Assembly: GCA_002441245.1 (NCBI GenBank)
Contig: DJVP01000012.1
Coordinates: 325,504-389,503, forward strand
From: Candidatus Omnitrophica bacterium UBA6253
GTDB lineage: Bacteria; Omnitrophota; Gorgyraeia; Gygaellales; Profunditerraquicolaceae
Direction of reading: 5' to 3'
Length of the DNA stretch: 64,000 nucleotides
The notes under the pieces were generated by a model that saw nothing but the letters and a program-made list of their open reading frames with translations, had not been told where the DNA came from and searched no databases. Every line of letters starts with the position of its first letter. Position 1 is the first letter of the stretch. The translations under genes were made by a program, and so were the position numbers. Positions 6,520 to 64,000 of the stretch are shown here, piece by piece.

Positions 6520-6538
6520 GTTCTTTTGTTTGAAAAAA

Positions 6539-7231: not shown

Positions 7232-7257
7232 TTATGCACCTCTCCGCCACTGTCCGG

Positions 7258-7587
7258 TTAATTCACTGGAAGATTATTCTTAACATGTTCGCTTATCCAG
7301 CTTATTGCCGATTCCTCAATCCTGTTAAAAGAAAGCCCATAGATATTCTTTTCATAGGCGTTATCATGCCAGGCTACGTGCGCCCCCATGTCAAATACTA
7401 AACCTTCAGTCAAGGCCAGCCTGAAACTTGAAAAGGCCTCATGAAAAAGGTCCCTGCTTAAAGAAATCTTCATTCCGGAAGTGCTTATATCTTCCACTGT
7501 ACAAGGAATAGAGCTAATGCCACCATCAAAAACCAACCCTGCCTCTTTATCAAGTTGCCACCGTGCTACCTGCCTACGCTCTTGCAT
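7258..7587 (-). CDS. PilZ-domain protein.
   Basis: 109 aa with RRQVARWQL...EDISTSGMKI. SD AAGGAGGGGA lies immediately upstream (rc of 7590-7600). Confidence 0.6.
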   Translation of the reverse strand: MQERRQVARWQLDKEAGLVFDGGISSIPCTVEDISTSGMKISLSRDLFHEAFSSFRLALTEGLVFDMGAHVAWHDNAYEKNIYGLSFNRIEESAISWISEHVKNNLPVN

Positions 7588-37100: not shown

Positions 37101-40100
37101 TACTGTGCCTTGATGGCTCAGGTGCAAAATACTGCCTATTCCTTTATAGGATTCGTTCTGGCACAAAAGCTTTAAGGCAATAAGCTGCCGATCGTTAAGT
37201 TCGCATGATTCCCCTGGCATTAATTTCTCCTGCCCGGCCAGCTTAATCTTTACAACCGGGCTGGATGCCTTTTCTTGATCGCTTAATCTGCTTATCGGCA
37301 GGGGTAAACCGACAACCGTGCATTTTTCCCGGCCATCCCAGTCTTCAAATCCAGGGCTTAATCCTCTATTACCCTCGGGGACCACCTTTAAATCGATAAA
37401 ATATTTCCGGATCAATCTGCGCAAATAATCCCTTCCTTTGCGCAATTCCAGGATATAGACAAAAGTAACTGTCCAATTCATGCGCAATGCCTCCCGGTGT
37501 AAAAAATCAAATATTGTTGAACCAATACCAATATATTCCCGGCCGATACGGCCATAACGGGTTTCTATAGACACTATTTCTATATTCTCAACCTGATAAT
37601 CCAGGCATGCCAGAAGCCCGTTTCCTCTGATAAAAATAAAATCCCCCTTGCTGGTAATATTTTCAAACCCTAAGTCGTAGAAAAGTTGCTTTCTGATTAA
37701 GGACTCCCTGGGCCTTAAATCATACTTATAATAATCAGGCACCTTCAACTCTATGCTTAATGAAGGTTTAAGTATATTCCTTAAAAATATGACATCCTGG
37801 CCCAATTCCTCTTTAGTATCATAAACCGGGCTGCTGCTAAATGCCCCGCCGGAAAGAAACTTTTGCTCCCCACCAGCCACGGAAGGTAAAGCAAAATCAC
37901 TATCATCTTTCCAACGGGGCATAACAATTCCTTTTTCTTTTAATATCCGCGCCAAAATCAGCTTGCCTCTTTCAATTCTTTGCCTGATTCCTTCCCTGCC
38001 AATATCCCACCTTGCAAAGCCTTCATCTTTCAGCGCTTTCTTTATCTCATTAGCCTTCCCGGAGTGCTGGCCCATCAGGATACTTAAAACAGCAAGAAAT
38101 AAATCTTCTGCCTTGCTGATATCCTTCCCCTTATACTCTTTATATCTGCCGATAATATATGCGATTATTTCTTTTTTCTCTAAACGCTCCAGAGGATTCT
38201 CTGTTTTATTATCCGCAAACATATCCAGGAGGGTAAGTCCATCGCTATCATCACCAACCGGGGTATCTATTGATAAGCCCTCTATACGTATTGCCTCAAT
38301 TTCATCCGCAATTAATTTTTTTATGGATTCATCGGGAAACCAATTATAAAGAAGTGTGGAAAGCCTGAACCCCTTATCAGGATCGTATAACGCTACTACA
38401 TCACGCATATTGGAAAAATCCAGAATTGCCCTGTTGGTGTAGAAAATATTCTCCAATAACCTTCCGTATAAATCCAAATATCCTTTATACTGGCTTTTTA
38501 TTATCTTTTGGATACGGAATATTATTATTTTCATTCCTATAATTGCCAGTATTTCGCGGGCTGCCGCGTTCCCATTAAGGCATTCCCGGCCTAATACCCC
38601 CTCTTCTTCTCTTGTCGGCCATCTATAGCCGTCATACATACTACTGATCCCGGAGCCATTTTCATTATCATAATTGACATAATTTATACCCTTTAAATCC
38701 GGAAGAGAACGAAAATCACTATATTTTGCTTCCCATTTTCTCTCAAACGGCTTTCTTCCCATTCTTTTCTTACCATTACCATTCTCTTCTTTGCTTGAGC
38801 TATTATCATTTTGGCCATAAAGATTAACAAATACGCCATAAAGCAATCTTACTTCTTCTAAATCCAGTGCCTTTTCCACATTCAGCTTAGCGAATATGCT
38901 CTTCTCCAACCGTAAATCGGGTGAGCCTGATTTTACCTGGCTAAGCAAATCTAATTCTTCCCTGCTTAAGCTTTTAATGTTTTCTTTAAACTGGATGAAT
39001 AGATATTTAACTCCGGGCAGATACCCTTTATCTATCGCGTATTGGATGCTGCATAACCTTAACCCTTCTTCCAACTCCATAGCTGTATTAATAATATCTT
39101 TTTCGGATATTTCACCGTCTTTAAGCGCGAACATTATGATTTCGGATATATTCTTGCCTTTTTTATCAATACCCATGGCGCCACATATAAAAAGATTATA
39201 CCTGCGGATTGAATCAGCGCCTTCTTTTATCTTTAACAGCCTGCAAGCCATATCCCTGTCAGCAACCAGAGCCTGGATTAATAATGCCTGCTTAAGTTTC
39301 AGGCTGAGCTTTTTCCTTTCGAACATAAATTTAAATCTCTTGAATTCTCCCGCGTCATACTCGATATAGCCTTTTTCCGCGGCACTTACCACACATTGCA
39401 CCAATGTCTGGTAACGCGGTTCAAGAAATTTCGGAATATCTAAAATACTCCTAATCTCACCGACCCTCTCCCTCACAGTAATAAATGATTGGCCTAAGCA
39501 AGCAGCAATATCCTTATATGATATCCGCTTATTTTCTAAGCCTGCTTTTATAGCTGTCTCCAGCAATTTTATCTGGGTCTTAAGCAAAGGATTCGATTCT
39601 TTAACTTTTCTTGCCTCTTCCTGCGCAGGCTGTTTAGCAACCGATTCATTTCTTTGTAAAATATAAATTACCTCAGCTAACTTATCCCTGCTGATTATTC
39701 CTCCCTGCCTGTTAACCAGTTCATATTCCTGCTTATATACTTCCATAAAAATAGGCAATAGTTTGCCGTAATTGCGGGAGGTGCCTAATTTTTTAGTTAC
39801 CCAATACAGCCTGTTACGTAATACCGGCTTGCTACCGATTTCCTTTCCTGCTTCTTTTAAAGGCCTGCCGCTTAGGATATCTTCCGCGATTACCCCCAGC
39901 GTCATTAACTCCATCTCGGTGAGCCATTCCGCGCCTCTTTTGGACGCCCTATAGACATATTCCTTGATCTGGCTAAGATGGATATAGTGGGGGAAGCTTT
40001 CAAAATAACGCTCACTATCCTTATACGCCGCAATTATCAAAGGAGCGACCTGCCCTCTTTTTTTGTCTACACCCAATTTAACGGTGATACTGGTTAGCAA

Positions 40101-43100
40101 TCTCTTAAGGGAACCAAAACCTACATTCAATTCCCTGCAAATATCTTCGTTTGATTTTCCCAAAACAAGCAACACTAAAACTGTTACTTCCCTATCATCA
40201 AGCTTATTAGCGCAAGGAGATGAACTTAAGGAAGAATCGAAACCGGCCAAATGATTTTTTAGCTCGCCTAAATTCTCAATAACAAAATCAAAAGGCTCGA
40301 CTCCATCAAATAGCGCTTTGGCTTTCTCCAACTTACTTTCTTTTTCTTCGGCCGCGGCGAACATCGCCAACCGCACACCCTCAACAGCCTTCCTCAACGT
40401 AACGATTACTTTTGGAGCATCATCCACTATTAAAACTTCTTCTGCAGAGAATCCATTAGCCCTTATTATTTGAACCATTTCATCTATCTTAACCTTTATC
40501 GTGTCAGATTTTTTATTCTGCCGCTTAAGAAGAAACCTTGCTTCTTTAAAATATTTATTTAATCCGGAATATTTCAGTATATTTCTTTTTTCATAGCCTC
40601 CGGCAGAAACTATATAAAGGGGTAAAACCTGGCTTAGTCTTTCAACTGTTTCCTTGGCACCCGGAGTCAATAAAGAAACGGCTCGAGTTTTCAATATATT
40701 TTTTAACTGGCTGTCTCTTAATTCTTCATAGTCTTTGATATATTCCATAACAGGCTTGGCTTCTATTTTACCGCGCTGTCTGATAAGTCCGGATACCTCC
40801 GGCAATGTTTCCCTGGTAGGCGTACCTAAAACCCTCTTAAAAAATTCATTTATCCATGGCTCAAGCCAAAGAATATCTTTAAGTTCAAATCCGGCTTCCT
40901 TGAACATTTTATAAATTATCTGCCTGAGCACATCACGGCAAACAGGTATTGTATCCGCAATCACGCCGTCAAAATCAAATATAATTGCTTTAATTCCATC
41001 AGGTGAAGGAGAAACCGCTTTCTTCTCATTTGAAAAAAATACCGGCGAACTGGAGTGAAACATCGATGAAGCGCCCGATAAGTTAACACCATCCCTATTG
41101 TCGTTTAAAATTGATTTTGCCTTCTGGTAAAGATTGCTTATCAGGGAGTCACCGACGCTTTCATTATTCCGCAAGAAATCCGAGGATAGCCAGCCTACTT
41201 GTTCATTTTGGGAAGAAAAACTGTCCAATATGCCACGCACATAATATTCTAGATCTATAAAAATACCTGTATTCTCAATTTCCAATACATTTGTTAGTAA
41301 CTTCGACAATCTAATCCGCATGCTTTTTTCACAATTAAGATAACGGGCTGCGACGGATAACGGCAATCCTAAATCGCATTCTCTTTTTAAAACGGCCTGA
41401 CGGCGGGATTCTTCATCCCTGTTTACATACCATACTCCATCTAATATTTTCCCGACTTTTAGTTGGAACAGGTTGGCTGAATCTATAAAAATAGGCTTGC
41501 GGCTCCCATTATTAGAATCATGCAAAACCTTCAGTATCTGTTCATAAACCAAATGCCTTCTAGGTAAACAAGAAATGCGTATATAAAACCAATACAACAG
41601 AGGTGACAATGAAAAAATGTATTTTAACCTATTTATAATAATATTTTTCACGCAGCTTGAAAAATCGCCATAGACTACAGAACAGCCTTCTTTTTCTATA
41701 ATCCCGGAAACAGTGGTTTTCCCCACCCCCATAAATCCCGTAATGCCTATAAATTGAACTCCCAATTTTTCCTTTAAAGCAACAATCTCTTGAATCGTTT
41801 TCCTGCGACTCAATATTCTCAACGGCGAGCTGGCGGCTTGATAATTAACCATGCTTATTCCCCCTTCACAAACCTTGTATTCATGAAGAATACGCAGTAC
41901 CTCTGCTACGCTCCAGGCCTGCGAAGAAGTCCCTCCCGGATATTGAGGAACGGACAGACCAATCTCTCCGCCATTAAATACCTCGTCTATTGAGCCATGC
42001 GTAAAAAGCCTAAGAAGCAATTTCTCTGTTTTAAAACGCACCTCTTCTTTAATCTTTTCTTCCGCTACGCCTTGCCATCGTCTGACTCGCACCAATAAAT
42101 CTATCTCAGGACCGATAAGAAACGGCCAAGCTGTACCCTGGTGATAAGCAAAATCCTTGTGTTTACCAAAATCAACTGAATCTGGCCCTGGCTGACTGTT
42201 AGTATCATAGTGCGAATGGTAGTTGGAATCGCGTGGAGATAATGTTCGCGGGCCATAAGACGTACTTAAATCCTTCATGCAGGCATCTAACACCTGAGCC
42301 TGCTCCTCCATAGGTAAAATATCCGGTGCCACGCTCAAAGCAATAAGTTGGTTCGGCCGCAAAGCAGCTCCATGATTGGCGCTATCCGGTGTCCCATCCG
42401 GACCAATGACATCAAACAAACAATTTTCCCTCTCATCTAGCTCTCCGGGATTTTTTAAATGGTTGTTCCAAAATTTATCCCTGAAATTACTTTTTACCTT
42501 TTCTGCAAGTTCTTTCCAGTTCGGCTCATTCTTTTCCGGTTGCAGCCCGAATTCTTCCATTGCTTTAGCCAACCAGCGAAGGTTGGAATACCATAATCCT
42601 TGAATCTCTACGCACTTACCGTTACGCGGAGTTACGGGTAAGGTATGCTCCGGGATAGCGTCCATCCAAGTGCTCTGCGCAGGGCTAATGATTAACCCAT
42701 CTTCTTTATCAGCATAAATGCTTTGCCGCTGACCGTTGCGGTCATGATACCCTGTACCATTATAATAACCTAACATGACCCGGCGGATTACAGGCAGCAT
42801 TTGTTTAATGGTTTCGAAATCCCCCGTATAATCCAAATATTTATGTGCCATAACATAAACAAACCACATAGAGCCATCCACTGTGTTATACTCCGGATTA
42901 GCCGGGTCAATGATGCGGTTAGGGATCAAGCCATCGCGTTCGAATCTGCTAAAACTTTCGAGAAGCGCCCGTGCTTCAGGATGAAGCCATTTCTGCAGTA
43001 ATAAGCAACCGGTATAACTGATAAAAGTATCCCTTCCCCATTGCTCAAAGAACCAATCGCGGCTGGCGGCCCAAATTTGAGGTACTCCATTAAATGACTT

Positions 43101-46100
43101 AACAAAGGAATCCGCTGCGGCGCTTAAAGTAGGCATAATACAAGCTATAGCCTCTTCATCTTTCCAGACACTCTTTCCATCTTTCTGCAAACGCGGGTAA
43201 ATCCGGGTCGTAAATTTAATAAATGGCCCCAAGTCATAACGGCAGCGTTGATAATAATCCGAATCACCGGGGAGAGGTATTCGATATCTCCAGAGTGACT
43301 CACGAAGCACTATCTCTTCAGGTTTTAATTTTAACGAACGGTCATATCTGTCAAAGCCCGTGGCGTAGATCGTTTCACCCCATGACGTAGTTATGCGCAC
43401 AACCTTGATAAGCTCGTAATCTCCCCATAAATCACCCATAGTATAAATAATAAACTTGGAAGCATTGGGAGAAACTTGCGCCTGTAATAAGTTATTGAAT
43501 CCAACCATAAAATCCACCGCATTCCTGTGATACCAACGTGAATGGTCATCATGGGTACTAAGCCTCTTGGCATTTCCATCCATAACTACAAATCCAAGAC
43601 GCTCGGCATCGCCTGCTTTACCTTCATAGGCTTCAGCTAAAGGAAGTTTACCGCGTTCAAGATAAACCTTAATCAATGCAGCCGCAAAATCCTCCCCATC
43701 TTCATCGCCGCTGGCTAACTGTCCGCTACCAAAATTCCAGCTAAAATGCAAAGCATCAGTACGGCCTCCGGCAAAACCGAAATCCAACCAATGCATAATA
43801 GGATCAAGTTTAAGTTTATATCCATCTTTACGCAGGTTTTCCCAGTTCCAAAGGGCCAAATCCATCCATCTTTCATTGGAACATTCATTTACAATCCCCG
43901 GATAGCGGTTATAAATATCACGGAAAAATTCTTTATGATGCCGATAAACATCCACACTGTCTTTAGCGCGAAACATAGCATCGTCAAGAAGTAAATATCC
44001 ACCCATGGTATTCACATCCCGGACAGCTTCTGCCAATTGCTGGTACCCAATCCATTGACTATATTTGTACCTATTCTTTAATTCCGAGTAGTATGGAGTT
44101 ACTCTTACTTGATTTACCCGCTCATCCTCCCATTCCCACCAGGGCCTACTGTTGAAAATTAAGTGCAGGACCATAAAATCGGCAAAATCATCCAACCAAA
44201 CCTTATCATGATTTTTGCAGAACTCCTTAAACTGCCCGGCCCGGTTAGTGTTATTAAGAATACATTCCCGTTGAAAAACCTCAAAGGCTTTCTGCAAAAT
44301 TGTGCTTTCGCGATAGCGCAATTCCGCGTGATTAATTTCTCGTGAAGGAAAAGTTAGCAATGGCCCGAATTCCTTTTTATGTTTGATCACCTCCGGAACT
44401 TCTGACCAGTCATTATAATCAGTGTTAACAGCATATTGGCAAATTGAGCCATAAGGGCTCTCCAATAGAATAGGATAATGCGGAAGCATAACCGCAACCC
44501 TTACTCCATTCGACAGGAGTTTTGATTTAAAATGCGGAGCGATATCAGTCCATTTTCCGATTCCGGGATCATTCTCCGGCCTGCGTAACGCGCCAATACT
44601 CATTGTCTCAACAATATATGTTTCATCCGGCATCTGCCACCAGGCATCCATAGGTGAGCTGGAAACTAAGAAAACGCTTTCATTCGAAGGCAAAATAAAA
44701 CTACGCGACTCTACCTTTACTAATGCGCCAAGCTCTTTGGAAACAGGAGAGCTTGATTGTCCCGAGATAGAACAACTGCCCTTTTGGAGATTCGCTCTCA
44801 TCTCTTGAGGCGATAACACATTAATCTGAGTATCCACGCCCCAGCCATTAGCCCAGCTAATAACATCTTCTTTGCGTAAGGAGCCATTATTAGTATCCAT
44901 GCGTTCAAATAACGCCGCTGTCAGCCATCCGCTTCTCTTAGGCGAAAACGCAACAGTCCATTTAACGCTATCATTCTCTACTAAGTACTCCCCGGCATCC
45001 GCCTCCACTATGAACCGTTCGCTATTTACATTCTTTACAGGATTAGTAGTCCCCAATATTACCGGCACAAGCTTAGAGCATAACTCGTATCTACGCAGAG
45101 GAATGGTTATCTCAATTTTCATCTTGTGCCCCATTACTACATCCCAAATTCTTTCTTCTGTTTGTTTAACATAGCCCGTTTCTTCAATGATTTTGATTTT
45201 CATCTTGTGATTACTCTGGTTATTGATCTCCTGGCGCGCCTTACAGGTCAACCGGGGTGTCAACGTTACCTCATACTCCTCCTGCCATTTTCCTGATGTG
45301 GTTATAACGCGGAACTTCTTCTCTTTACCATTCATGCATATTGCTTTCCTAAATATAACCACACCTTCTTCCGGTTTTTCTTCTACTTGATTAAACTCCT
45401 CAATAACTCCTTCCGGAGTTTCTATCCATGCGCTTACACGCTTCAATCCATTCAGGCGAACCGGTACTACTAATTCTAACTCGTTAGCATTCCTGGACAT
45501 CACACATACCCTGCTTCCTCCCGTACATGGTTCGCTATCCAGTATAACCTTACCCGAATCTAACTTCTGCTTTATCCGCAGATAATGTTTCTCATCCTGC
45601 GCAAAGGTTACTTCATGCTCCGGCTGTGCGAATCCTCCAAACTCCTTCAATAATATCTGATGGATGAACTTACCAGGGTTCTTGGCTATCAATTCCTGCC
45701 TCTTTGCTTCCTCTTTACCGACCATCTTATCCCATTGCCGCGCGTATTCTGCTGCCGTCAAATTTACATCCACGCTACGGAAAAGCTTGAACCCGTCTAA
45801 CAAATGCTCAGTTAATCTACCCTGTTTCCCTGCTTCCAATACCCATTCATACAACTCTAAGTATGAACCCTCACTTGAATCTTTCGGTACAATATTCGAC
45901 CCCCGGACTGACTGACGGTTAGCCAACGCCTGAATCAACTGTATATACCCGTGTAAAGCCGCGCATCCGCCATGCATCCAAGTATGCGCCTCAGTTGACT
46001 CTGCGGCGCCTGTAATTAAGGGGTTGCGTAACTGTGTCAAGAATGACGAATCCTGCATCTGCGGCGCCAGACAAGGCAAAAGCGCAAGCTGCTGATCTAT

Positions 46101-49100
46101 ATCGAATTTCGGCTGATAAATCAGCTTGCTTTTCAGACCATGCACGTTTATCTCTCTGGTAAATCCCAGGAATTGCTCACCTTCATACTTGCTCCCACCC
46201 GGCAATTCTGTACCCATATAATCCTGCACATTACCAAGGATCACAAAGAATTGTCCTCTCTCAATAGCCTTTTTCACATTTTCATCGCTAAACGCGCCAT
46301 CACGACCCCACTTCTCATGTACCCACCTACCGCTGTAACCTGCCCACGGCATATCTTCAATTGCTGCCCAATACGCATCCCAGTCGCCGCTATATTCATC
46401 AGGTAATACTATATTCCACTCTTGAACATGAGACTTTATATAGGTGTTAATATAATACCATTTGCTTGCTCGCACCAATTCCGCGAACATCTCCATCAAC
46501 TCTTGGTCTGTCCGCTCAACGTTATCTACCCAAGCCCACAATTCTTCGTATGTAAGCTTATCCCTCTCCTGCTGGAATTTCGCTTTCTCGAATTTATCAG
46601 CAACACGCATCTTATCATTCAATCGCTCGTAAACATCTTTTGATGCCTGTCTCGCAAAGCGAGATTCGATAAACCGCATTGCAAAATACCTGAGCGTCAG
46701 CCTGCACAGGTCGCCGTTAGTCACCCCTATGCCGGTACTTTCATAAACCTGTGGATCAAATTTCCTCATTTGATAACCGTGTGAATCACTTACGTAATTC
46801 GTAAACCCCCTCCTGAGCATCGTTGCGCGCAACCCCGCGCTCGTCCAATCATAACCTTCATTACCGTGGACTGTCCGTCGCTTCCATAACCATAACCATT
46901 CATCAGGAACACCGGCCTGCTTCAAATATTCTCTGGTTGCCGATAATGTATTCAACACCGTATGTGAGGTACTCCCATAGTAGGCCTCTAATAAAACAGG
47001 TGTCTGGAACTCAGGTAAAAATAAACTCCACGCCGCAGCCGCCACCGTCTGTCCATCATTCAATCCTAAAAACGGTGCCTTCCACAATACCCCTTCTTGC
47101 GCCCGCCGGCCCTCCTCTATTTTATTAACCACCGCAAGGAATGCTTTCGTCGCAAACTCAACTGAATGTGATACCGTTGGATCCCTATGCCGTTCGGCTC
47201 CACAATTGCTGTCATCGTAGCGATATAGAATCTGTGCGTACCAGCCACCTGCATCCCTGAACATGACAACCGGAATACCTTCATCATTTTCAGCCTGATA
47301 TACCAGAACCTCTTCTTTCTTCCCCTGAAATGTTGCCTCTATTCTCATTGTAATATCATCACCCATTTTTAATGGTATAGGCAGCGATCCGTAATCTAGT
47401 TTTTTGTCGATTTCTCTCTCATAGCTTGATCCCCATAAATACCGAGGCTCCACTATTACTACATCGAGACCCATTGCCTTTAGAGCCCTTGCCAAATACT
47501 GCATTACTCTGCCTAATCCACCCTTAAGCTGCGACACTTCTGGAGCAAGTAAATACAATCTCCTGCCCTGTAGATGCTTAAATGCCTCTTCACCCCATTT
47601 CTGTAAATCCGGGATCATATTCAACATTAACAACACCGACTCTGTAAGAGCGCTTCTTTCTGCCACATACTCTAATAAATCTCCGTTAACACTACGGAGC
47701 AAATACTTTACCAACATATCCCTCATTTTTGCATTTAAACCCAGCACGCCTCTCAGGAACGGTTGGCGCGCCTCTACGGGACCAAGCGGGAATTCTTCGG
47801 AAGCCGCGCTATAGCTATTTACCATCTCTGCCAGCGCCTTTTCATTTTTAATCTCTCCCTGCTCATTAAACATTCCACGCAACTCTTCCTCTATGAAGAA
47901 ATTCAACTTCGCCCAAGTCGCTATGGCTTCTTTTTTCTCTCTCAATTCGTAGTGCCCATGTTTATCCCTTGAGATTATTTTCAAATTCTCCAGGTAATCA
48001 AAGATATCCTGGATATGTATTCCGCTTCTATCTCCTATATTGCTAAAACCAAATCGCTCTAATAACTCCATCTCCACTTTCTTACTCATCGTATCATCCA
48101 GCTTTACCGGCAGGCGTCCTTGCTTATCCCATTCAAGCAATAATTCCGCTGTCCCGAATAACATTGCCCAGTATGCCGGCATATTACCTTTATTATCCCG
48201 AATAGCCTGATGTGGTAACGGATATTTTGTATTAATAATTTCTCGTGACAAACCATAACAAATATTATGTTCTACGGGTGAAGAGCAGTTTTCTACCGGG
48301 GAGTTTAAATAAGCGGAAACTTCTGCGGGCGAAGAAACAATAGTTTCCCCAGCCGGCGGGCCTCTCTTAGGCAAGGATTTGGCTATTACATCGGTTTCTA
48401 CTATTGCTTGCGAGGTAAAACCTGAAATCTTCTGAAGGATATGGAGGAATTTATCGTCTGAGATATTAACAGGGCTTGAACCAAAAGAAATCTTATTAAA
48501 AATCTTATTACTATGCAACAAAGGGATTGTCTGGGGGACAGGCTTTTTATCGTTATCTGAAATAATAAGTAAATCCCCGTTTTTAATTAAATAGTCTCCT
48601 CCCCGCTTAAGCCTGCAGACCATGGATAAATCGCCCTGGCTATCGGGAAAATATTCACCTAAGGAACAAACTCTAATATGCGGATCGCTTACATTCAAAA
48701 CACTGGCTATACTATCTATCTTGCTTTCTGAAGGGCTGCGCAGGGCCTTTATGGTAACGGGAGCTTTTATATTGCTCCCCAGTTTGATAACATTTATATA
48801 CTTATATTCGCTAATATATTTTGAAATTATAGAAAATATTTCCGCGGCATTTTCCGCCGCTTCTACCCCTGGTATCACCTCAAATTTTTGATTCTCCAGC
48901 GCGTCAATTTTCTGCAACTTATGAGACCAATATGCCATCTTACCCAAACGCATCTCCCTATAAGTTTTTTGTGAATAAATCTGTATTTCGTATTTTACGC
49001 CAAAGCCGTCTTCAAAATCTATGTGGTATTTTTGTCCCGGAATTACATACCCCCCTTCAAGCTTAATGTCTTTACTGTCTATGTTGCTTGCATTTATATT

Positions 49101-52100
49101 TATACCAAATCTGCCCTTCAAGATCTTTCCGATATACCATACTGCGCCATGCACATCTACATCACTTTCCACGATAACCGTTATCCCCAAGATGTCAGTT
49201 AGGTCTGATATTGAAGTGTATTTTTCGTCCCCCCTATTGATCTTTAACCACGCGGTAAAAGCCTTCTTAACCCTGTTTAAAACAGTTGCCCTTATCCCAT
49301 CTTCATTAAGCCCATTTCTTATATCTTCGGATAAATCGTTTAAATATTTATTGGCATCCGTTCGGCTCCTTCCGATAACTGTTTCGATTTCTTTCTCTAT
49401 AATGTTATGGATACTGCCGGCGTAATTTCTGAATACTTCATCCAGGAAATCCCCGGCCAATTCATCCAAACCCAATCTCTCAGCCAACGGAGCATATATA
49501 CAGGCTATCTCCTCTAACAAATCCTTTTTTCCTGTATAAGTAGAAATACTTATGAACTTATCCGCCAACACCAGATATAAACCCTCGATGCTTTCGGAAA
49601 GTCTTATAACAAGATTGATGCGGTTATTAACGGCTTCCTGGTCTTTGTAATTTAGACCATACGGAAGGTTAATTAATCCGGTCAGCCTCTTTACATAAGC
49701 GATAATTCTTCCTGCCTTAGACTTATCAACCCCCAGCCCTTTAAGTATCCGTTTTATCTCTTTCTCCGAGGAGACCTTATGCAAATAAGCAGCATAAATA
49801 ACTTCTTCCTCGGAGGTAAATTCCAAGGCCTTAGCCGCTACTCTTTTTGTATGTGTAAAATATGTCTCTCCAGAAGAAAATTTCTTGCCCCTGTATTCTT
49901 CGCTCAAGATCTTCTCTATCTGAACAATCCGTTCGCCTCTAATCTCTACCGGTGAACTGGAGTAAAAAGAGTTATTCTTTCTAATATTCCCTATATCCTT
50001 AGCTGAAGAAAGCGATGCCCCTTTCAGAAAGACTACATATGGCCTTTTTTCTAATAAGGGCGCTAATCTCATGGCTGAGTTCAAGCCAGTTGCCAGAACC
50101 ACTCTTTCCTTTAACACTGCCTCCCGGCTCGATAAGAAAGTTATAGCCAGAGAACCAGCCCGGGTATTTAGCATTGATAAAAATCCCTTCAATTGTAGAC
50201 TCAAGGCTAGCGAACTCAAGAACCTGTAAATCGTGCATTTTACTCCTCCTTTGTTAATTAGATTATTAGAAAATAATATCTCTTTCCCTGTAATCTCCAT
50301 CGGCGAGCTAGAAACACCATCTCTCTGAATTAATGACCTTGAAGGCACAAATAAAGAAGCCCCCAAAATCCCGGTGCAGCCAACTATTTCTTTTAGCCCG
50401 TGTATTCGGTCGGCCTCTATTAATATAATATCTCTATATCCCCTGGAATTAAGTTCGTCTTTCAAGGCAGTGAGAATGTTCTTTCTGTTAGAGCTTTTGA
50501 TCAACCATCCGCCTAAAATAAAAATACTACAACCTTTAACGCTTTGCCAGAATTGTCTTTCCAATTCTTCAGGAATATTAACTATTAATTTTCTACCGCT
50601 ACCCTCATAGATCGCAATGATAGCCCGGGATAAATCCATACCTACCTGGTTAAATATCGAGATACTGGATGCCCGAATCAAAGCATCCGTTGAATATGTC
50701 AACTTGCTAAGGGATTCACCGTCAATCCTGTCTAATTTTTGTAAAACAGTATTCTGGCAGGCAAGATTCGCAATCCCCTTGCCGCTAATAAGATCTTCAC
50801 AGGTCAAATAATCCTTAGAAAACTTTCCCTTGCCTTTACGGATAACAATATCGAAAAATTGTTGCGGCCCGGGCATAATAACTACCTGATTATTCTTAAT
50901 GAACAAACCTCCGGCCCCAAAACCGGTGCCGGGAATAATATTAATAATTTTAGGAGCAGTTTTAAGCCTGTCTTTAACCGACGCAAACTCTCTCGAATTA
51001 ATCAAAGAAAGTAAATGGTGTGTCATAGCCAGGCTATGCGCAACGCCGTCATTATTGATAAACACCTGCCATTCTTTGCTTAATCTATCTATTATTTCAT
51101 CTGCGAACTTCAAACGCTCCAAATCAGGCACATTGAAAGCTGTTCCGCTATAAACCAGCCCGTTTTCTTGCCAGGCGCCGGGAGCTGAAATACCTACAGA
51201 CTTTAATAAACGACGACTTTGCATCTGCTTGCTTCTTAAGCCCTCCTTGATCAAAACAACCATGGAATCGATTGCTTCAGGTAAATCAACAACTTTTTCT
51301 CCATTAATAATCTTAAACGGATTCACACAAGAACCCTTCCAGAGAATAATCGGTTCGCCGATAAACTGACCTTTTCTAATTTTTCTTTGAACTAATGCTA
51401 CTCTTATGTTCGTGCCGCCAAAATCAATAGCCGGAATTACAACCGAGCTGATTCTATCCAAGGGATTAGTTAATTCTTGTAATGGTGAAGAGCTGAATAT
51501 ATTACTCGATTCATTAAAAGTTTCAGGCGTCAAAGACCCTAGTCCTTCAGCATCATAGATAATACCAGAGTTAGTTATCTCGGTTTCATCTATGTAAACC
51601 CCTAGTTTGGTTAACCCATAAACAAAATTATGATATATCCACTTTCCGCCGTCTGTTAACGGCAGATCTTGAGACATAGGGAAAGTTTCTAATCCCTGAA
51701 GACTATAACTGATCCAACTAGTAAACAATGCATGAATAGGATAATAATACGGCTGGATAATTACGGGATTATAAACATATAAACCAGCTAAAGGCTGGTC
51801 TTTTATTGCCCGATACAGGTCTGTTCTAGTAATTTTTCCTTCAGCAACGCCCATATCGATGATTTTCGGCAGCATCTTTGCATAAAGATAGTATAAAAAC
51901 CTCGTATTATCGTGCGTCTCGTTGTAATGCTTATATTTTATAAATATTGCGTCCTCGCAAATAGTGCCGATAGCATCAATTTCAACCGGATTAAGCAGTA
52001 GTAGGTAAGCGCTTTTAGTGTGACCGCCCCCGGGGGAAATAATTACTTTTACCCCTTCACGGATAGCAAGCTCTCTAAAATTGTAAACCTCTGCACCCCC

Positions 52101-55100
52101 CTTTGTAATACTTTGCGGTCTCCAGAAATTGCCTATCCTTCTAAGATCATTGGCGAGAATAATGTTTCCATCTATGCTTATATTAGAAATATTATCTACA
52201 ACAATCCCTTCATCCAAAGCCACCTTTCGCTCAGGAGCAAGGCGCATAGAAAGCATGTCCCAGCGCTTTTCGCTGAATTGCTTAATTATTGTATCCAGAT
52301 GAGAGATTATTCTCCCGGGGATTACGTCCTTAATCCTCTCCTCTATGGATAACGGCTTAAGCCAGAAATTACCTCTTATACAATTTTCCGGAATAATATC
52401 AGGTAAAAATTTTCCAACGTCTACAAAAATCTTCCAGCCATAAGGCAAAGCTTCGTGAATTACAGTAAAACAACAAAGTAATCTATTTAAAATAATCATT
52501 AGATTAACATCATCAATAATAATAACGGCTGGCAAAATATCTTCCATGATTTTTTCAAGATTTACAATCCTCTCTTCCGCTACCGCTAATATCCTAAGCA
52601 ACACAGTCTCAATTCTTTCTCTTAAAACTAAATTATCTCCAGTCTTCTTATTAATATGTTTATTTAGTAAGATAAGAAGAGGCTTGTTTGCCAAAAGCTC
52701 TATCTGTTTCTTGACCTGACGCATCCCTGACGGAATAAACCATCTATTTAAACCACTCAGGAGACCAAATTGACCATTCTCATAGATAGCCTCATCAATA
52801 TATGAATTTGCTTTAAAAATATCCTCCGGGCTATGTATATCCGGACCAATAATACTCTTTAATCTCCCAATAGCAGTCAGCCTTATGTTAAGAAGAGATG
52901 AGGACGAATGTTTATATTTATATAGAGACTGGACCCTGGCAAAGTTTAGTTCCGATAAATCTCTTACAACAATATCTGCACCTGCCTCTTCCAATTTCTG
53001 ACTGTTACCCACCCTGTCTATACCAATTATTAAACCGAAGTTCCCTCTTTTAAAAGCCTCAACACCTAAAGGAGCATCCTCAAAACCGACACACTCTTCA
53101 GGTAAAACTCCAATTTTCTGGGCAGCTAACAAGAATATCTTCGGGCTAGGCTTACCTTCGCCAACATCTTTCTTAGTTATAATGACTTTAATAATATTAT
53201 TGAAAACGCTTTCTTTTAAGTAATAAGAAAAAACTGTCGCGGAGCCTACTGCTATGCGGATATTTTGTCGGTCTAATTCTTTTATAAGAGATGCAGTTGA
53301 ATCAAATAACGGGACTCCATTGCTATCCCTAACGAACTCGCTAATCGCTTTTTCTTTCCGTTGGTCTAATTCCTGAATAAATCCCTTACTTGCACCGGGG
53401 AACATTGCTTTAAAGGCATCCTTACCGCTTACTCCATTGGCAAATCTATTATATAGATTCAAATCAAAATACTTACCTTCCCTCGCTAATATTTTTTTGT
53501 AAATCTCAAACCAAACCAATGCCGTATCCGCTATCACCCCGTCAAAATCAAAGATCGCGCCCTTAAGAACACTAGCAGGGTTTTCAATGATAGATGAGGA
53601 AGATTTTAGATCTAACTGAGAACTTGCATAAAGCGCAGCGCCTATAGCGCCTCCGTATTGCCTATCCACACTCGACAAAGAAACCGTAAACCGCCCTTCA
53701 TTAGCTTCACTCAATAAATTATTGATTCCTTTTAATATTCCTGTTCCGGCTTCCGCTACCGTAATACCTCCTGTAATTATGAATTTTGTATCCTGCCTCA
53801 TCCTATTCATCAAGCGCATCCAGGAATAAATTGAATGTGATAAATCACAATAAACTCTTCGCGCCTCCGCATACCCGATTTGATCTCGATTCTTTAATAA
53901 CTGACTTATCTCTAAAACACTAAGATTATCTTTCCCTGCAATACCAGGTAAAGCGAACTTCTGGGAAATCCTTAAGATACCACTGACTCCGGCAAAAGCT
54001 GCAAAACATCCTTTAACGCTGCATCCTTGGTCAAATGGAGCATCCTCTCTAAGGTTGACCACAAAAGCTCCGCTCTGTTCAATTCGACTCATATCTATTA
54101 ATCCACCTTCAAACCGAGCGCATCCTACTCCGGTACCTAAAGCCAAAAGCACTCCATTATCTATTTTGTCATAATTAAGTGCGGCTACGGCAAACGAGGT
54201 TACATCATTTAAAACCCTTACACATTCAATGTGATATTCTTTTTTTAGTTCTTCCAACATGCTATGTAAATAGCCATAGTCTTCCCGGAAATCCGCATCC
54301 ACTCGCTCATGAGCCTTCCCCCATTTGTATTCATAATTAACCAACCAAATAATGTTACTTTCAATCGGGTTTACTACTCCCGGCAATGATATCCCTATGC
54401 CATCTATCTTATAGCCCTTAGACATATCTTTAGCTAAATTCATTATCAAGTCTTTCAGTTCTTTCCCACCGGTAGTCACGGTATCAATCGTAGTTTTTTC
54501 CATTACTAACCCATCCCTAACAACTACGGACTTTATTGTTGTTGCTCCGACATCGATTCCGATAAAGGCCCCTTTCATCATTTCCGGAGGTAAAGGCCCT
54601 AACAAATGCCTGACCAACTTATCCATCAAAAACTGATTTTCCTTACTGTCATACGTTAGGAAACTAACCTTATTCCCGAAATTCGCGAAATATTCCAACC
54701 TCTTGAAATTATCTTTAAGATGGTTCGCTAAAAGATAAAATACCGCCTCCGACATCTTCTCATTGGTTGAGCCAACGTATACTTTTTCCGCGCTAAAAGC
54801 AACAATGTAATTGTAGAGGAAAGAAGATATGTAATTAAGAACACTCTGTCTAATTGGACCTTCAAAGAGTTCTTTTACAAGAGGAATTGAAACCTCTCTC
54901 ATTTCAAGCCCAGACTGTAAAGCAACCAGTATTCTATGGCTATTAGGATATTTGTTAGTAATCAGGGCAAAAAGCATATCCCAATCATTAATATCTCCGG
55001 ATGTCAGCGCCTCTTTAATAAGGTTTTTTAAACCAGATTCATCGCTTAATGCCGGAACAGTCGGATCAAAAATCTTTGTTTTATTTTTCTTGACGATATA

Positions 55101-58100
55101 ATTACCAATGAACAGTGTATCGACATCTTGCATATATCTAAAAGTATTCAGGGCTTCTTCCGGATTCTCTACTAATGGTTCATGCTTGTTAAAAGAAGTA
55201 TTGACCACTGCCGGAACCCCAGTCAATTCCCCTACCTTATCCAAAAGTTTCAAATAAAGGGTGTTATGTTTTCCGTCTACAGTCTGGGGCCTCGCTAGTC
55301 TTTTCCCATATTGATGAACTCCGGAAGCCAACATATGTTTCTTATCCGCAAGGACGTCAAAAGCAACGACCATAAAGGGAGATTTGTAAATTCCCTTAAA
55401 ATATTCTTTCGCGACAGACTCAGAAATACTACAGGCAGACGGCCTCCATAACTGCCTTCCCTTTAGAATATTGGCGGTATTATTGGCGGTGTCGTCCAGA
55501 AGGTTTAATAAAATGCTTCTTGCGCCTAGCGCCCGCGGGCCTAACTCGCTTTTCCCCTGAAACCAGGCAACCGGCTCATTTTCTACTATCAAACGAGAAG
55601 CTTCATCTATTATTTTTTGATCGTTTGCCGCGATATAATCAATTCCCTGTTGAAGCCCAAACCGATCCAGAACTTTTCGAATTTCTTCATCACTGTATTC
55701 AGGTCCATAAAAAGCATGCTCCATTTCAAAGAAAACATCTTGCCCATATACCTCTTTAGCAACCACCAAAGCCGCGCCGATCGCTGTTCCGGCGTCGCTT
55801 GCTACCGGCTGAACAAAAATATCTTCGCCATCCACTAATCCATCGGAAATGATCTTCCCATTCGCTAATATATTCAAAGAAATCCCGCCGGATAAAGACA
55901 CCTTTTTAATATCTCTTGTCTTACGGGCTTCTCGAAGATGATACCTTACAATATCTGTTACAATGCTATCTGTCGTTTCCTGAAGCACAAAAGCCAAATT
56001 GGCGAAAGACCTGTCTTCAATCAAAAGAGGATCAATTTCTTTGCTATTTTTTGTACATAAAGGAACTAATGCCTGGAGCTTCTTTACCAGCGCGTTGGTA
56101 ACGCGAATCTTTCCAGGCGCAATACCTCCATAATAAAGATATTCGGGATTAGCGACCAATTTTCCACTAGTAGAATCAAAATATATATAATCATTGAAGA
56201 TTTTCCTTAGATTTTTTACCCGGTGTCTTTCCGTATCGTCCCGTGGTTCTCCATATGGAGCTAAGCCCATGATCTCGCCTTCTGCAAAAGTAGGCCGGAA
56301 GCCAAGATATTCTGTCATTGCAGCCCAAACCCATCCTAATGAATTAGGCAAGGTATAATTTCCGATTCCTTCCATTTCTCCATTATCACCGATCCAAATC
56401 GTCCCTGAATCAACATCTCCATAGCCATCCAGACAAACAACCAAAACAGGGTCTTTGAAACCACTGAGGTAATATGCCGAAGCAGCATGCGCAAGATGAT
56501 GACTGATAAACGAAATTAAGGGAGTGTATCTAGTATTATAGTATTTTCGCATTTCAGCCAAAAACTCTTCCAGATTACCGATGCTAAATCGCGCTTTATT
56601 CTTCTCGGGAACATTTCTGCGAATAATCCCTTTAATAGTAATATTTTTTTTTGCGGCAAACTCTTCATCCATTTTCCGAAAAAATTCATCCGAGGGGGCA
56701 GGAGAATGCGGAGTATCAACGTAAAGATTATAATTCCAGCCAATGGCAATATGAGCTATATCTTCTAACGATATATTCTCATCTTTAAGAAGCTTATGAA
56801 TTGCCAGAATAGGAAACTTTGAAGCATCGTGCTTAGTCCTAGACATACGTTCTTCTTCTAAAGCCGCTACAATCTTTCCGTCTTTCAGCAGGACTGCGGT
56901 AGAATCATGCCAAGAACCAGATATCCCCAGGATATATTGACCTTTTCTATTGGCGCCGAAATCACCTTGGTATAATTTTATCGTTATCCCGTCGTAGAAG
57001 ATCCGATCTTTAAGGCCGGCATACTCAACGGGAAAAATGTCATTTTTGTGGAAACGGACAAGTCTATCAGCAAAATACAAATCAATAACACGGTCTTTAT
57101 TAATAGTTACCCTCTGGACGCCGGAGATCTGACTAAGCAAGATAATCATTTCTTTATCGGTAAAGACGTTAAAGCCGTTACAAAAATCCATAAAGTTATT
57201 CAAATCATACTGATCTATCATGATCCCATTATCTGCGAGCGTCCTGAAAATAATATCCTGCTCTCTGGTGATCCGTGAAAAAAGCTCTTCCATTTTATTC
57301 AACCCTTCTTCAAGGGTCCTATTCTTCTTTAAAAACCAGGTCCTAGCGACAAAGGAATCAACGCCTTTACGCAAAATTCTATGCAGGCTTTCTTCGTTGA
57401 TCCCACCGTCGATTTCAATCGGAACATTGTGGATACATCGTTCACGGAAGAATTTCCTCAACATGGCTATTTTTTCCAAAGTTGAAGGAATAAACGGACG
57501 ACTGCAGGCGCCCGGGACTATCGCCATCAGCATAATAGATTCTATTTCCCTACCGATCATCTCCGATATATTCTCAAGCGCGGATAAAGGAGTTTCAGGA
57601 TTAAGCACTAAACCAAATTTTAAATCTAATCCTACGGTCTTTCTAATAATATCCTTCAGTTTCTCAATTTCATTAAATGATTCAAAATGAATGAGTATTT
57701 TATCCCTTTTGCTTTTTAGTCCGGCATCAGACATTCTTTTTACAAGAGAGAAATCCGGTGCTACGGACATCAGGTGGACTATTAAAGGCAACTTTGTGAA
57801 AGAAAGCTCCCGAATCTGCTTACTGCAATCAAATGCCTCAGAATCAGGAGTAAATACGCCGTCAAGATAATCGATATGTATCCCATTCATCCCCGCGGCT
57901 TCCACTCTCCTTACCTCTGATACAACTTCCTCATCCAAAGCTGATAAGATCGAAAAGTAAACATTTAGCGATTTTATTGAGGTAATAGCGGAAGACGACC
58001 CTACCGGAGCGTACCATCTGATTATCTTTGAGGGGTGGTTAGAAGTGTTGGTAAGGGTGAATTCTTTAAGATAAGCCGGGATTATGGCGCAGTCATTGGT

Positions 58101-61100
58101 AGAGAGAGTTTCAGGAGAATAGTTAGGAGCATTGATCTGGACTGAGCCTTCTAAGATGAATATAGGATAGCCGTGGTCATTAGCTTGCTGGCTTATTCGG
58201 GTGTTAAGAGTAATCTCATCTACGATTACTTCAGTGGTGGTAAAGAGATTATCAATATGATTACCTTGATTATCATTAAACAGGTTTGCTCTCTGGCTGT
58301 AAACTTTAGCTAAGTTTATTTTATCATAAGCAGGAATATTGGCTCTGATTAAAGCATCATTTAAAACCTCCAGAGCTCCAACTATATCTTCTTTGCCTGG
58401 CCTGGGTGATTTACCATCAGTCCTGTCCCAAAGAGCAACTGTAGCTCGTTTTAAATCACCTTTCTTGATTTCTTCACCTGTTGGAGCATGAGACCATTCC
58501 CAGATGGTTGTGCCAAACCGAATAGCATGGATTAAACCACCTCCAACTAAGATCAAATCGTTTTCTTTAGCATTTAATTGATACAGTAGGTTTTCTAAGC
58601 TTCCTTCATTGTAGGCTCGCAAAAGGATTTCAGCAGTTATATTTTGATTTAGGCCCAGATATAACTTTGCTCCGCCTGGACCAACCATCCACATCTCAGG
58701 CTTAGCAGGCCTGGAAGAATGACCTATAGCCGGATGAACCTGAACCCCCAAGGATAAACCGGCATCAATTAACTTCATGATAGTAGCCATGGATCTGCCG
58801 TATCTTCTGATATGTTCACCACCTAAGATACGTTCCCCTTCTTGCTCTAAGAGCTGGATGAGGTTAAGATTAGAATCAACTACCTTTGAAGGATAGGTTT
58901 GATCATCTGAGGCAAGCCATAATTCACCTACAGGCTCATTCTCAGGATTAGCTTTATTTACATCAGCTATATCTCCAGCTGGCAGGTCCTTGTAAGTCAA
59001 TCCTAAAAGCTTTAAGATATTTGATTCCTTGGCAGGCCTGCCCCAGGTGTAAGTATGCTTACCGGTGCGGATGTTGGCGCTATAGATACGAACTATAGCG
59101 CTGAGAGGGGAGGAAGAAACATAAATCCTCTCTACGTCTTGTTGGGTTAAACCAACTTCGGCCAACTTACGATAAAGTTCTTCATTGGCAATTAAAATGT
59201 GCCCGGTCATTTCTAAGCTGGCAAATTTAAGCTTATGGCTACCATTTAAATTGATTTTTGCGTATTCATCTTGACGTGGAAATAAAATAGCCCTCGGATT
59301 ATTTTTTCTTAAGTTAAATGACAAATTATAAGGCATGTTCTTAAGCGATAAATTATTAATGTCTATTAATGTTGCTTCACTCAAATTTTCTATATCTTTT
59401 TCTTTAAACATAAACGCCGGAGCCGGCCAACCCATAATCAATCCTTCTTTCGTGGGATCATAAGCATCGATGTATTTCCAGATATTGGTCTGTTTCTTAA
59501 AGATCTGGAAATGTAAGTGGTGTACGGAATGGCCTGCGCCAGGGCTATTAAAAGTGGCTTCGTAATCTTCACCCATTGCCTTTAAAACTAACAAAGTATC
59601 TTCTACTCTTTTAGCATCCAATGATTGTTTCCGATGCTCTTTGCTAACCAAATTTAGGTGAAATGGAACATAGGGGAATTTATTGGCTATTAATTTATAT
59701 TCTCTCCCTTCTATTTCAATCTCGGCTAAAACCTGTTTATCCAGAATATTGCAAAAAGGACAAAGCGAATTATTATCATTCTGTTGATTAACGTATCCTT
59801 CCCTTAAATTAAATAAAACTACTTCTATTTCAGCTCCGGAGCCAAGCGTTACTTTCTGGGAAAAAGTATCAATAAATTTGTAAGCAAAAATGTCTCTATC
59901 GCTACAAGATAATTCCTGGAAACGCTTTTCAATAATCTCTTTAATTACTCCTGATTTTACATTGTTGTTTATATTTAGCTTCAGAATTGCTTTAATTGGC
60001 GAAGAAACACTGGGTTTTTCAGTTTTGTTCTTTCTCTGAATTTTTTGATTTACCAGATAAATAGTCCCATAAGCTTGGGCAAATCTGCGTAAATTATCAT
60101 CTGGAACTATTTCTTCAGGAAAAATAATCTGGGGTATTAGAGCTCTAAGATGAGGGAAATCTCTTTCTATAGTTTCTTTTAAGCTCTCATAGTAAACTTT
60201 ACCAGCTAAACAATTAAAATCTTTATTCTGAGCCTTATCTTTAACTTTAACCTTAGTGATTCTACCAGTGAGAAGCAATTCGTCTGGAAAGTCCGGCCCA
60301 AAATCATAATATATATCATTTAAAAAAATAGCCAAATGCTTACCTAAGTGCCGGAATATTTCTACCGCGTCTTCATTATAATCTTCTCTTTCAGGAGACG
60401 TCATAAGCTGTAATTCCTCTAATCTTTCTGCCTTCTCTTTTGCTTTTAATTCTATATTTTTCTCTTTAGCCAATCTAAAAGCTGCCTCCTGAGCTAAATG
60501 TTTCTGGGCCGCATCTAATATACCGGTGTTTTTGTTTTCAGTGCCAGCTTCCTTGTCATCTGTCAAGATCACATTGCTTGCCCTCAAAAACATCGGGGTT
60601 AATTCGCCATTCATATCCACATAACCAGCGCCAGGAGAAGTTCCAACTGCAATACCTAAAATATTGCCTCTTTCTTTTTCTACGGCAGCCCAGAAAGCAG
60701 TAATATTACCATCGTTAGCAATAGCCACTTCGGTTTTAAATTCTTTTCCTATTTCTTGAGCTAATAAACCTAACTTATCAAATTCATTCCAATATTCTTC
60801 TTTAGACCACTCTTCCCGATTCCAACGCTTCTTTCTATCCTCTTTAGCTTGTTCAATCCCTTCTCTCGTTCCTGTAATTCCCAGGCTTGCGGTTTTACCG
60901 GTATCTCCACCAACAATTAAGCCATTATAATTTTCATCATTAATTATCATATCCGGCCAGCTTATTCCAATACCTACTATCTTCTCATTATTTCCTACAG
61001 CCTTCAATACTTCCGGTATTACAATTTTATTAATGAAATCAATATAGTCGCTAGCCCGAGTAAAATCTTCCGGCTTCCAGCCCTCTTTTTCACCAAACTC

Positions 61101-64000: not shown

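Follow-up and report, generated by a model that had tools for sequence, protein, structure and literature searches.

Predicted sugar and alpha-glucan enzyme modules in a giant Omnitrophota open reading frame and the Ser-Ser-Pro motif at their junctions

The giant proteins of Omnitrophota (10,000 to 147,000 amino acids, aa) pose a puzzle as to what they do, where they are located, and whether each persists as one chain or is cut into many proteins. We examined a locus of Candidatus Omnitrophica bacterium UBA6253 (GenBank GCA_002441245.1, contig DJVP01000012.1, positions 325,504 to 389,503), a stretch of 64,000 nucleotides referred to here as the window, which carries a giant minus-strand open reading frame (ORF). 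An earlier note on the same DNA had read part of this ORF as consecutive polyprotein modules for alpha-glucan and hexose-phosphate metabolism. We consider that this sugar-enzyme segment is probably (probability about 0.75) an internal part of an Omnitrophota giant gene of the kind called Archaeovorins or multi-enzyme metabolic clusters, and that it encodes a chain of cytoplasmic sugar and alpha-glucan enzymes joined by the tripeptide Ser-Ser-Pro (SSP). Giant ORFs have been described as characteristic of Omnitrophota, one example being the 39,678-aa ORF of Velamenicoccus archaeovorus LiM, and the present locus matches the published giant genes described in 2022-2026, so that the phenomenon itself is already known. 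It is an unusually readable example, in that its modules match ordinary free-standing enzymes one to one. What this locus adds is the junction motif and the reshuffling of modules bounded by it, which make the choice between one chain and many proteins directly testable.

The giant reading frame and its junction motif

In our ORF reading of the window, one minus-strand frame is free of stop codons from nucleotide 7680 to the window end, corresponding to more than 18,772 codons; at >18,772 aa, it exceeds the size of at least 10,000 aa in a single ORF by which giants are recognized. Since a kinase domain of the PRK/uridine-kinase type is cut by the window edge, the ORF must be longer than 18,772 aa. 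Residue numbers preceded by P refer to the translation of window positions 7683-63998 (minus strand), in which the sugar-enzyme segment covers approximately P150-7388 (21.7 kb).

7680-64000, minus strand: giant ORF, open to the window end, with a TAA stop at 7680-7682

Reassignment of a stop codon as the source of the long frame was rejected, as six ordinary genes downstream terminate with TAA, TGA and TAG. Sequence similarity places the locus in an Omnitrophota genome: the named homologues of the substrate-binding protein (SBP) encoded downstream (78-89% identity) all belong to Candidatus Omnitrophica/Omnitrophota, and the assignment from the window rests on such homologues of neighbouring genes, there being no marker gene in the window.

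The ORF strings together modules of the size of whole proteins, punctuated by SSP. This tripeptide occurs 52 times, compared with 3.4 ± 1.9 times expected from shuffled sequences, and its junction logo is [S/V/A]-S-S-P-[V/I/L/A/M] with uninformative flanks. None of the 52 occurrences lies within a Pfam envelope, where 10.9 would be expected (p~5e-6), while many domains start 4-25 residues past an SSP site; the median stretch between successive sites is 243 aa long. Junctions of the form (S)SSP[V/I/L] span the entire giant ORF in the window (7683-63998, minus strand) and are not restricted to the sugar-enzyme segment. Within or just after that segment, a sequence scan located 15 sites; two of them coincide with the ends that the earlier note had given to the segment (63551 and 41833).

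40215-63563, minus strand: 15 (S)SSP[V/I/L/A/M] sites, with first bases at 63563, 61664, 60005, 59114, 51491, 50309, 49958, 48479, 48335, 48284, 44753, 44660, 41831, 41051 and 40223
P2001, P3466 and P3698, minus strand: degenerate SSSA/SSSS sites

The junctions match the termini of free-standing homologues at two modules described below, namely a nucleotidyltransferase (NTase)-like module and a debranching enzyme. In the AlphaFold2 (AF2) model of the former, predicted confidence (pLDDT) falls below 50 just before the first site (residues 1-6) and just after the second (643-651), whereas the SSP residues themselves occupy the termini of confidently predicted helices.

Both serine codon classes are used at SSP, indicating that selection acts on the peptide. 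Codon usage at the sites is also biased: TCG serves as the second serine codon at 20 of the 52 sites, compared with 8% ORF-wide (p=5e-12), and CCG is enriched for proline. The resulting loose consensus, AGY-TCK-CCG-GTR (for example at window positions 41823-41837 and 50301-50315, minus strand), is shared with relatives. This bias hints at a DNA- or RNA-level component or at common descent of the junctions. We rejected a purely DNA-level origin, given the use of both serine codon classes and the confinement of the nucleotide motif to the SSP frame. A second candidate junction motif, the peptide FIQAN enriched in the related contig L006, was also rejected, as it belongs to a HEAT-like tandem repeat of ~38 aa.

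Enzyme modules of the segment

Modules were identified with Pfam, NCBIfam, a PDB sequence search, motif reading and two AF2 models compared by Foldseek. They are listed in reading order of the ORF, together with one module upstream of the segment and two just past its downstream end.

63564-63998, minus strand: PRK/uridine-kinase-like module, cut by the window end (PF00485 E=5e-6; udk E=2e-5)
61665-63563 (P146-778), minus strand: sugar-1-phosphate NTase-like module, NTase plus beta-helix (AF2 model and Foldseek)
60006-61664 (P779-1331), minus strand: ASKHA/ROK-like kinase 1, weak (ROK E=0.0027; fructokinase E=0.0011; DVGGS motif)
59115-60005 (P1332-1628), minus strand: HIT-superfamily module, GalT/Ap4A-phosphorylase-like (DUF4922 E=2e-7; Ap4A_phos_N E=0.003; HLHFQ, that is HxHxQ, and CPFC)
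57999-59114 (P1629-2000), minus strand: class I phosphomannose isomerase (PMI; PF20511 E=5e-6; manA E=1e-9)
53604-57998, minus strand: three-enzyme block without internal SSP, comprising Rpe, carbamoyltransferase and ROK kinase 2 (Pfam/NCBIfam)
57342-57962, minus strand: Rpe (E=7e-31)
55086-56933, minus strand: NodU-type carbamoyltransferase (C-terminal domain E=2e-43; N-terminal domain E=4e-23; NodU E=1e-28)
53625-54563, minus strand: ROK kinase 2 (ROK E=5e-11)
52908-53603 (P3466-3697), minus strand: HAD-IA module 1, beta-phosphoglucomutase (beta-PGM) family (TIGR02009 E=4e-33; bPGM E=5e-30; below cut-off)
51492-52907 (P3698-4169), minus strand: unannotated 472-aa module (no Pfam or NCBIfam match)
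50310-51491 (P4170-4563), minus strand: glucokinase-like ASKHA kinase 3 (PF02685 E~1e-3; DFGGTN, NND and GTGFG motifs)
48480-49958 (P4681-5173), minus strand: RelA/SpoT homologue (HD_4 E=5e-8; RelA_SpoT E=4e-4; TIGR00691 E=3e-20)
44754-48479 (core 45609-47681), minus strand: GT-B alpha-glucan glycosyltransferase-like module (PF08323, GT5, E=4e-7)
41832-44660 (P6447-7389), minus strand: GH77 4-alpha-glucanotransferase plus GDE_C amylo-1,6-glucosidase, a bifunctional debranching enzyme (PF02446 E=3e-25; PF06202 E=3e-85)
41052-41831, minus strand: P-loop module just past the segment, CoaE/nucleoside-kinase-like (Walker A GFMGVGKT; AAA_18 E=2.5e-4; CoaE E=0.02; TIGR00152 E=3e-5)
40224-41051, minus strand: HAD-IA module 2 (PF00702 E=4e-11; motif I DFDGV)

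Each of the modules tested is equivalent to a whole enzyme encoded by its own gene in other bacteria, and the order of modules in a single minus-strand frame that the earlier note had described was borne out for almost every module by Pfam, NCBIfam, motifs and the two structure predictions. This includes the CoaE-like and beta-PGM modules placed after the debranching enzyme, where we found the P-loop module followed by HAD-IA module 2. Catalytic or ligand motifs are kept in Rpe, PMI (zinc-ligand motifs QVHP, PEMW and HAIRFG), the HIT module, both HAD modules, the ROK/Glk kinases, the carbamoyltransferase, GH77 and GDE_C; the sole motif loss among the modules read is in the RelA/SpoT hydrolase. 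There, the HD motif has become HK, and the synthetase motifs have several substitutions (R to T, R to Y), which makes the predicted activity of this module doubtful.

The NTase-like module had zero matches in Pfam, NCBIfam or the PDB sequence search. A single-sequence PDB search with the N-terminal 1,300 aa likewise found nothing, and a profile search of the N-terminal region returned only a non-significant match to ADP-glucose pyrophosphorylase (E=0.26). The module does contain a GGxGxR motif, and its AF2 model, built with 20 homologues, has a pLDDT of 85.5 and a pTM of 0.89; Foldseek ranked GDP-fucose pyrophosphorylase first (9iis, E=1.2e-7), followed by ADP-glucose pyrophosphorylase, RmlA and eIF2B subunits. 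An NTase-like identity of P146-778 is thus supported at the level of the predicted fold. A free-standing homologue of 653 aa (P0052) spans the module end to end (P147-779). In two proteins of 2.6-3.8 kaa from other lineages (P0047 and P0050), neither of which has SSP motifs, the module lies directly upstream of a phosphoglucomutase/phosphomannomutase (PGM/PMM) module, and in one of them it is also found downstream of phosphoglycerate kinase (PGK). The NTase-like family is without a Pfam model.

ROK kinase 2 (P3146-3458) belongs to the ROK family, scoring 43 bits for PF00480 against a gathering score of 22.9. Kinase modules 1 and 3 have weak ROK/Glk-like matches, yet both carry the ASKHA phosphate motifs. 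HAD-IA module 1 is, by its sequence, a member of the beta-PGM family with intact DFDGV, GKPSP and ED motifs; since it scores 104.9 bits with the TIGR01990 equivalog model, whose cut-off is 189.4, we leave its specific activity as a prediction. Three beta-PGM modules had been counted previously, but the whole ORF in the window contains two HAD modules. Expansion of paralogues at the module level had also been proposed. The three kinases and the two HADs are alike only at the motif level, with kinase-kinase and HAD-HAD matches of E 1e-2 to 1e-5 in a 50-sequence database and ~24% identity between the HADs, and we therefore rejected a recent paralogous origin.

The GT-B module had been read as a GT35-like phosphorylase, which our results do not favour over GT5. 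PF08323 (GT5) is its sole profile match, covering profile positions 5-105 of 239 only, and KGGLG is present, while both the PF00343 phosphorylase profile and the EASGTxNMK motif of the pyridoxal-phosphate lysine are absent from the module. Its AF2 model is of moderate confidence (pLDDT 63) and is matched about equally by Foldseek to GT5 starch synthase (starch synthase IV, E=3e-13) and GT35 GlgP (E=2e-11). The closest named relative is a "glycogen/starch synthase" of Candidatus Omnitrophica (43% identity). The profile match points to GT5, and the predicted fold does not separate GT5 from GT35.

The debranching module is delimited by SSP sites at P6447 and P7390, between which more than 30 free-standing GH77+GDE_C proteins align (P6452-7380). 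It is the most divergent member of its family and retains 188 of 214 family-conserved columns (88%). A eukaryotic or archaeal architecture rare in bacteria had been suggested for it. This holds for the GDE_C half: like the eukaryotic glycogen debranching enzymes (GDE/AGL; PDB 5d06 and 8zeq), the module combines a transferase with an amylo-1,6-glucosidase, its GDE_C domain is homologous to theirs (8zeq, E=1e-21), and WGRD and TWMD are kept. The transferase half differs, being GH77 (amylomaltase type) here, whereas the eukaryotic enzymes have GH13-like N-terminal domains (hGDE_N/hDGE_amylase/central) and align to the module over its C-terminal domain only. The GH77+GDE_C combination is a bacterial family that is usually free-standing, with proteins of ~1,050 aa in many members of the Elusimicrobiota and Omnitrophota.

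Relatives, the remaining ORF and its neighbours

SSP punctuation is also found in other Omnitrophota giant ORFs (L012, L014, L006 and P0044), and comparison with relatives indicates, at the sequence level, that the junction has been retained within a sub-lineage in which the content and order of modules vary. Two contigs of a related metagenome-assembled genome (DP16D_bin.15), of 9,075 and 10,224 nucleotides, each consist of one open frame. The shorter contig (L006) shares the Rpe-carbamoyltransferase-ROK block at 59% identity with 8 gaps; domains within the block are 52-77% identical, connectors 37-42% and junctions <20%. The neighbours of this block differ from those in the window, with HEAT-like repeats upstream and a GAPDH domain downstream. 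In the 10,224-nucleotide contig, PRK, PMI and NTase are adjacent, as opposed to the window order of PRK, NTase, ROK, HIT and PMI. L014 has 16 SSP in 3,071 aa, with homologous modules in a different order, and L012 has 10 SSP in 2,126 aa without detectable module homology to the window. Where module order differs among relatives, the break points are at SSP junctions. Two loci with the same synteny carry few or no motifs (none in 2,926 aa of L015 and one in 1,103 aa of L009), and when metagenomes were scanned with the conserved block, the only locus recovered was the distant L007, which is without SSP.

Beyond the sugar-enzyme segment, the ORF runs for another 11,000 aa that contain LuxR-type helix-turn-helix (HTH), CofD, methyltransferase, radical-SAM, GNAT and sigma-70-region-4 modules. 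Two GerE/LuxR-type HTH modules lie at 40059-40202 and 33171-33317 (minus strand), with a possible third near P8135-8226; the extreme C-terminus is a sigma-70 region 4 domain (7695-7844, minus strand). HTH modules inside the ORF would be odd for a supposed surface protein. An internal duplication of ~600 aa outside the sugar-enzyme segment (36027-37838 and 15462-17657, minus strand; P8721-9324 and P15448-16179) appears fairly recent, with 36-72% identity by segment and ~62% over the main 300 aa; a weaker tandem pair (P12317-12440 and P12500-12630) has 34% identity.

Downstream of the ORF is a block of conserved genes (1119-7587) that includes the sugar-type ABC importer and the secreted glycoside hydrolase mentioned in the earlier note, the hydrolase having a signal peptide.

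7258-7587, minus strand: PilZ
6539-7231, minus strand: PilZ
5121-6500, minus strand: sugar-type SBP
4246-5124 and 3392-4240, minus strand: two ABC permeases
1119-3392, minus strand: GH2_C-like hydrolase with signal peptide

Six other loci (within L008-L016) show the same order of giant ORF, PilZ, SBP, two permeases and GH2-like hydrolase, with a free-standing ROK farther along. The SBP ORF (459 aa) has an N-terminus ~27 aa longer than most homologues (432 aa), and its true start is probably an internal Met ahead of the hydrophobic signal segment. In L009 (3486-9024, with an SBP 89% identical to that of the window), a 17,736-aa ORF is followed by separate ORFs of 516 aa and 1,308 aa (the latter with a PGK domain) and then by PilZ, so that the tail modules appear un-fused.

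Interpretation and comparison with known systems

The results support a theme of nucleotide-sugar, hexose/pentose-phosphate and alpha-glucan metabolism for the segment. A maltodextrin/glycogen utilization regulon collapsed into one translation unit had been proposed; the single unit and the sugar/alpha-glucan theme stand, but a self-contained regulon does not. That reading is too narrow, because the same ORF also holds the carbamoyltransferase, RelA/SpoT, HTH, CofD, methyltransferase, radical-SAM, GNAT and sigma-70-region-4 modules, and because module order is not conserved among relatives. In the chain of cytoplasmic enzymes that we favour, the segment would supply activation and interconversion of imported sugars, sugar phosphates and nucleotide sugars through three kinases, PMI, Rpe, the beta-PGM-like HAD, the NTase and the GalT-like HIT module. 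The GT-B transferase and the GH77+GDE_C debranching enzyme could build or trim an alpha-glucan store. A (p)ppGpp-type module and the carbamoyltransferase would sit beside these enzymes, the adjacent ABC importer and secreted hydrolase would plausibly feed them, and a single ORF would fix the co-expression of all modules. A cytoplasmic placement is suggested by the ATP/NTP, phosphorylated-substrate and (p)ppGpp chemistry, by the HTH modules and by the near-absence of hydrophobic segments from the 18,772 aa. None that is convincing lies in the sugar-enzyme segment; the single convincing transmembrane-like segment is at 30333-30389 (minus strand; P11204-11222), with a Kyte-Doolittle score of 2.23.

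The role of the SSP junctions could be proteolytic: the motif may be a protease recognition site at which the chain is cut into separate enzymes. Five residues with a fixed Ser-Pro bond followed by a hydrophobic residue look like a recognition site and not like a generic linker, and two features of polyproteins are present, namely several complete units on one ORF and a conserved short motif at the unit boundaries. We lean slightly and tentatively towards proteolytic separation into individual enzymes, and consider it about equally likely that the junctions are uncleaved Ser-Pro hinges recognized for folding or modification. In the stronger form of the proposal, which we regard as conceivable but rather unlikely, the ORF is a true bacterial metabolic polyprotein cut at SSP into approximately fifty enzymes and regulators, whose modules are cassettes that are gained, lost and reordered. 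The polyprotein label in the earlier note thus describes the anatomy correctly, and the processing that it implies is a candidate. A conserved gene for a parvulin-type prolyl isomerase has been reported near giant genes; a link between it and the Ser-Pro junction is speculation.

Several points weigh against a cytoplasmic chain of junction-delimited active enzymes. The Rpe-carbamoyltransferase-ROK 2 block is a single stretch of 1,465 aa bounded only by degenerate SSSA/SSSS sites, and its lack of an internal SSP indicates that not every enzyme is separately delimited. Several modules are highly divergent, with weak or no profile matches, and some, such as RelA/SpoT with its HK motif, could be inactive. 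Enzyme activity, expression and cleavage are predictions from sequence for this ORF. Published topology surveys describe most giant proteins as membrane-associated and predict some "metabolic" giants to be extracytoplasmic. Domain searches of the 18,772 aa in the window found no peptidase domain, including C39 and S8, and no SecA_DEAD domain in this part of the ORF, whose N-terminal part lies beyond the window; C39/S8 domains have been reported near the N-termini of giant proteins, and the N-terminus of this ORF may carry a signal peptide, membrane anchors or protease modules.

The published predation hypothesis offers an alternative, in which the ORF encodes an exported, prey-directed surface or effector chain whose carbohydrate modules act on prey cell-wall polymers or outside sugars. 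In the literature, giant ORFs have been associated with predation, with GH2 flanks and with genes for secretion and pili; a signal peptide together with transmembrane helices has been predicted for some multi-enzyme giants, and a secreted hydrolase and a sugar importer are indeed present downstream in the window. However, ATP/NTP, sugar-phosphate and (p)ppGpp chemistry and DNA-binding HTH modules make little sense outside the cytoplasm, and at most one convincing hydrophobic segment occurs in 18.8 kaa, so that we consider export unlikely. The divergence of the modules could also reflect a structural megaprotein of decayed enzyme folds, with pseudo-enzymes as building blocks of a coat or scaffold. 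Many modules do fall far below curated family cut-offs, the GH77-GDE module stands apart within its family and the RelA/SpoT hydrolase motif is degenerate, but the retention of catalytic and ligand motifs in most modules examined, together with the greater conservation of domains than of connectors in the block shared with L006, makes this explanation improbable.

That the modules equal whole free-standing proteins might instead point to a disguised operon, in which they are translated separately from internal starts or internal transcripts. Shine-Dalgarno sequences with a start codon are not enriched near junctions (4 of 52, compared with 5.9 ± 2.3 expected), and the codon after SSP is mostly GTA or GTT and not a start codon; internal translation starts at the junctions were rejected on these grounds. 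Internal promoters, terminators and RNA elements were rejected as well, with promoter-like and terminator-like sites at chance level and no Rfam element found in a search of the sequence, which leaves a disguised operon very improbable. The least credible account is an assembly artefact or chimeric contig. The sequence is of metagenomic origin, and a second JGI assembly of the locus, L002, differs from L001 (at ~4589-4617) by 1 mismatch and 4 frame-breaking indels in 14.3 kb, which split the giant ORF into two called genes and may represent assembly error or strain variation. Against this, an independent JGI metagenome contig matches the window at 100% identity across 14.3 kb, and a second JGI contig from another sample does so at 99.97%. 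Stop-free frames of several kb also run through the same modules in relatives with 54-65% identity, and chance cannot account for a frame of 56 kb without a stop codon.

If the junction is a cleavage or recognition site, structure prediction could be applied to giants divided in silico, neo-termini could be sought in existing proteomes, and the role of the sugar enzymes, in the cell's own glycogen economy or in prey attack, could be tested module by module. Missing cleavage points have prevented the splitting of giants, and the cleavage of their products has been called open (West-Roberts et al., 2023, bioRxiv 10.1101/2023.11.21.568195); if the SSP junctions are processing sites, they would supply such points. 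A junction motif, linker or polyprotein is unmentioned in that work and in Nielsen and Lui (2026, bioRxiv 10.64898/2026.06.07.730766), although earlier mention elsewhere is possible.

Among known systems, AROM, CAD and the fatty-acid synthase, polyketide synthase and non-ribosomal peptide synthetase megasynthases also hold several catalytic units per chain, but in a fixed, pathway-ordered architecture with carrier or channelling logic, whereas module order here is not conserved between relatives. Viral polyproteins (picornavirus, potyvirus) similarly place several complete proteins on one ORF with a short conserved peptide at the boundaries. They are cut there by a protease, whereas the present modules are cellular metabolic enzymes and no protease was found in the window; the likeness is one of layout only. 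With bacterial glg/mal clusters (glgBXCAP, malPQ), the segment shares a glucan transferase, a debranching enzyme, a 4-alpha-glucanotransferase, a sugar kinase, a phosphomutase-like module and an NTase. Those are separate genes of an operon, whereas unrelated modules are interleaved here, and the window yielded neither a branching enzyme nor a clear-cut GlgC, GlgP or alpha-PGM.

The published Omnitrophota giants provide the best match. Archaeovorins abound in GT5, GT1, methyltransferase and NUDIX domains, in some cases accompanied by glycolytic enzymes, and the genes that come after them encode PilZ, solute-binding proteins, ABC transporters and glycosyl hydrolases (West-Roberts et al., 2023). 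Multi-enzyme metabolic clusters comprise a sugar module (PF08323, GT1, PGM/PMM, ROK, radical SAM) and a regulatory module (methyltransferase, GNAT, HAD, HD; Nielsen and Lui, 2026). Most described giants have many transmembrane helices, in contrast to the part of the ORF in the window, which is almost without hydrophobic segments. The present locus shares with this class its phylum and ORF size class, the downstream series of PilZ, SBP, ABC permeases and GH2-type hydrolase, and a module repertoire of GT5 starch-synthase-like, ROK, HAD, HD, methyltransferase, GNAT, radical-SAM and sugar-phosphate enzymes.

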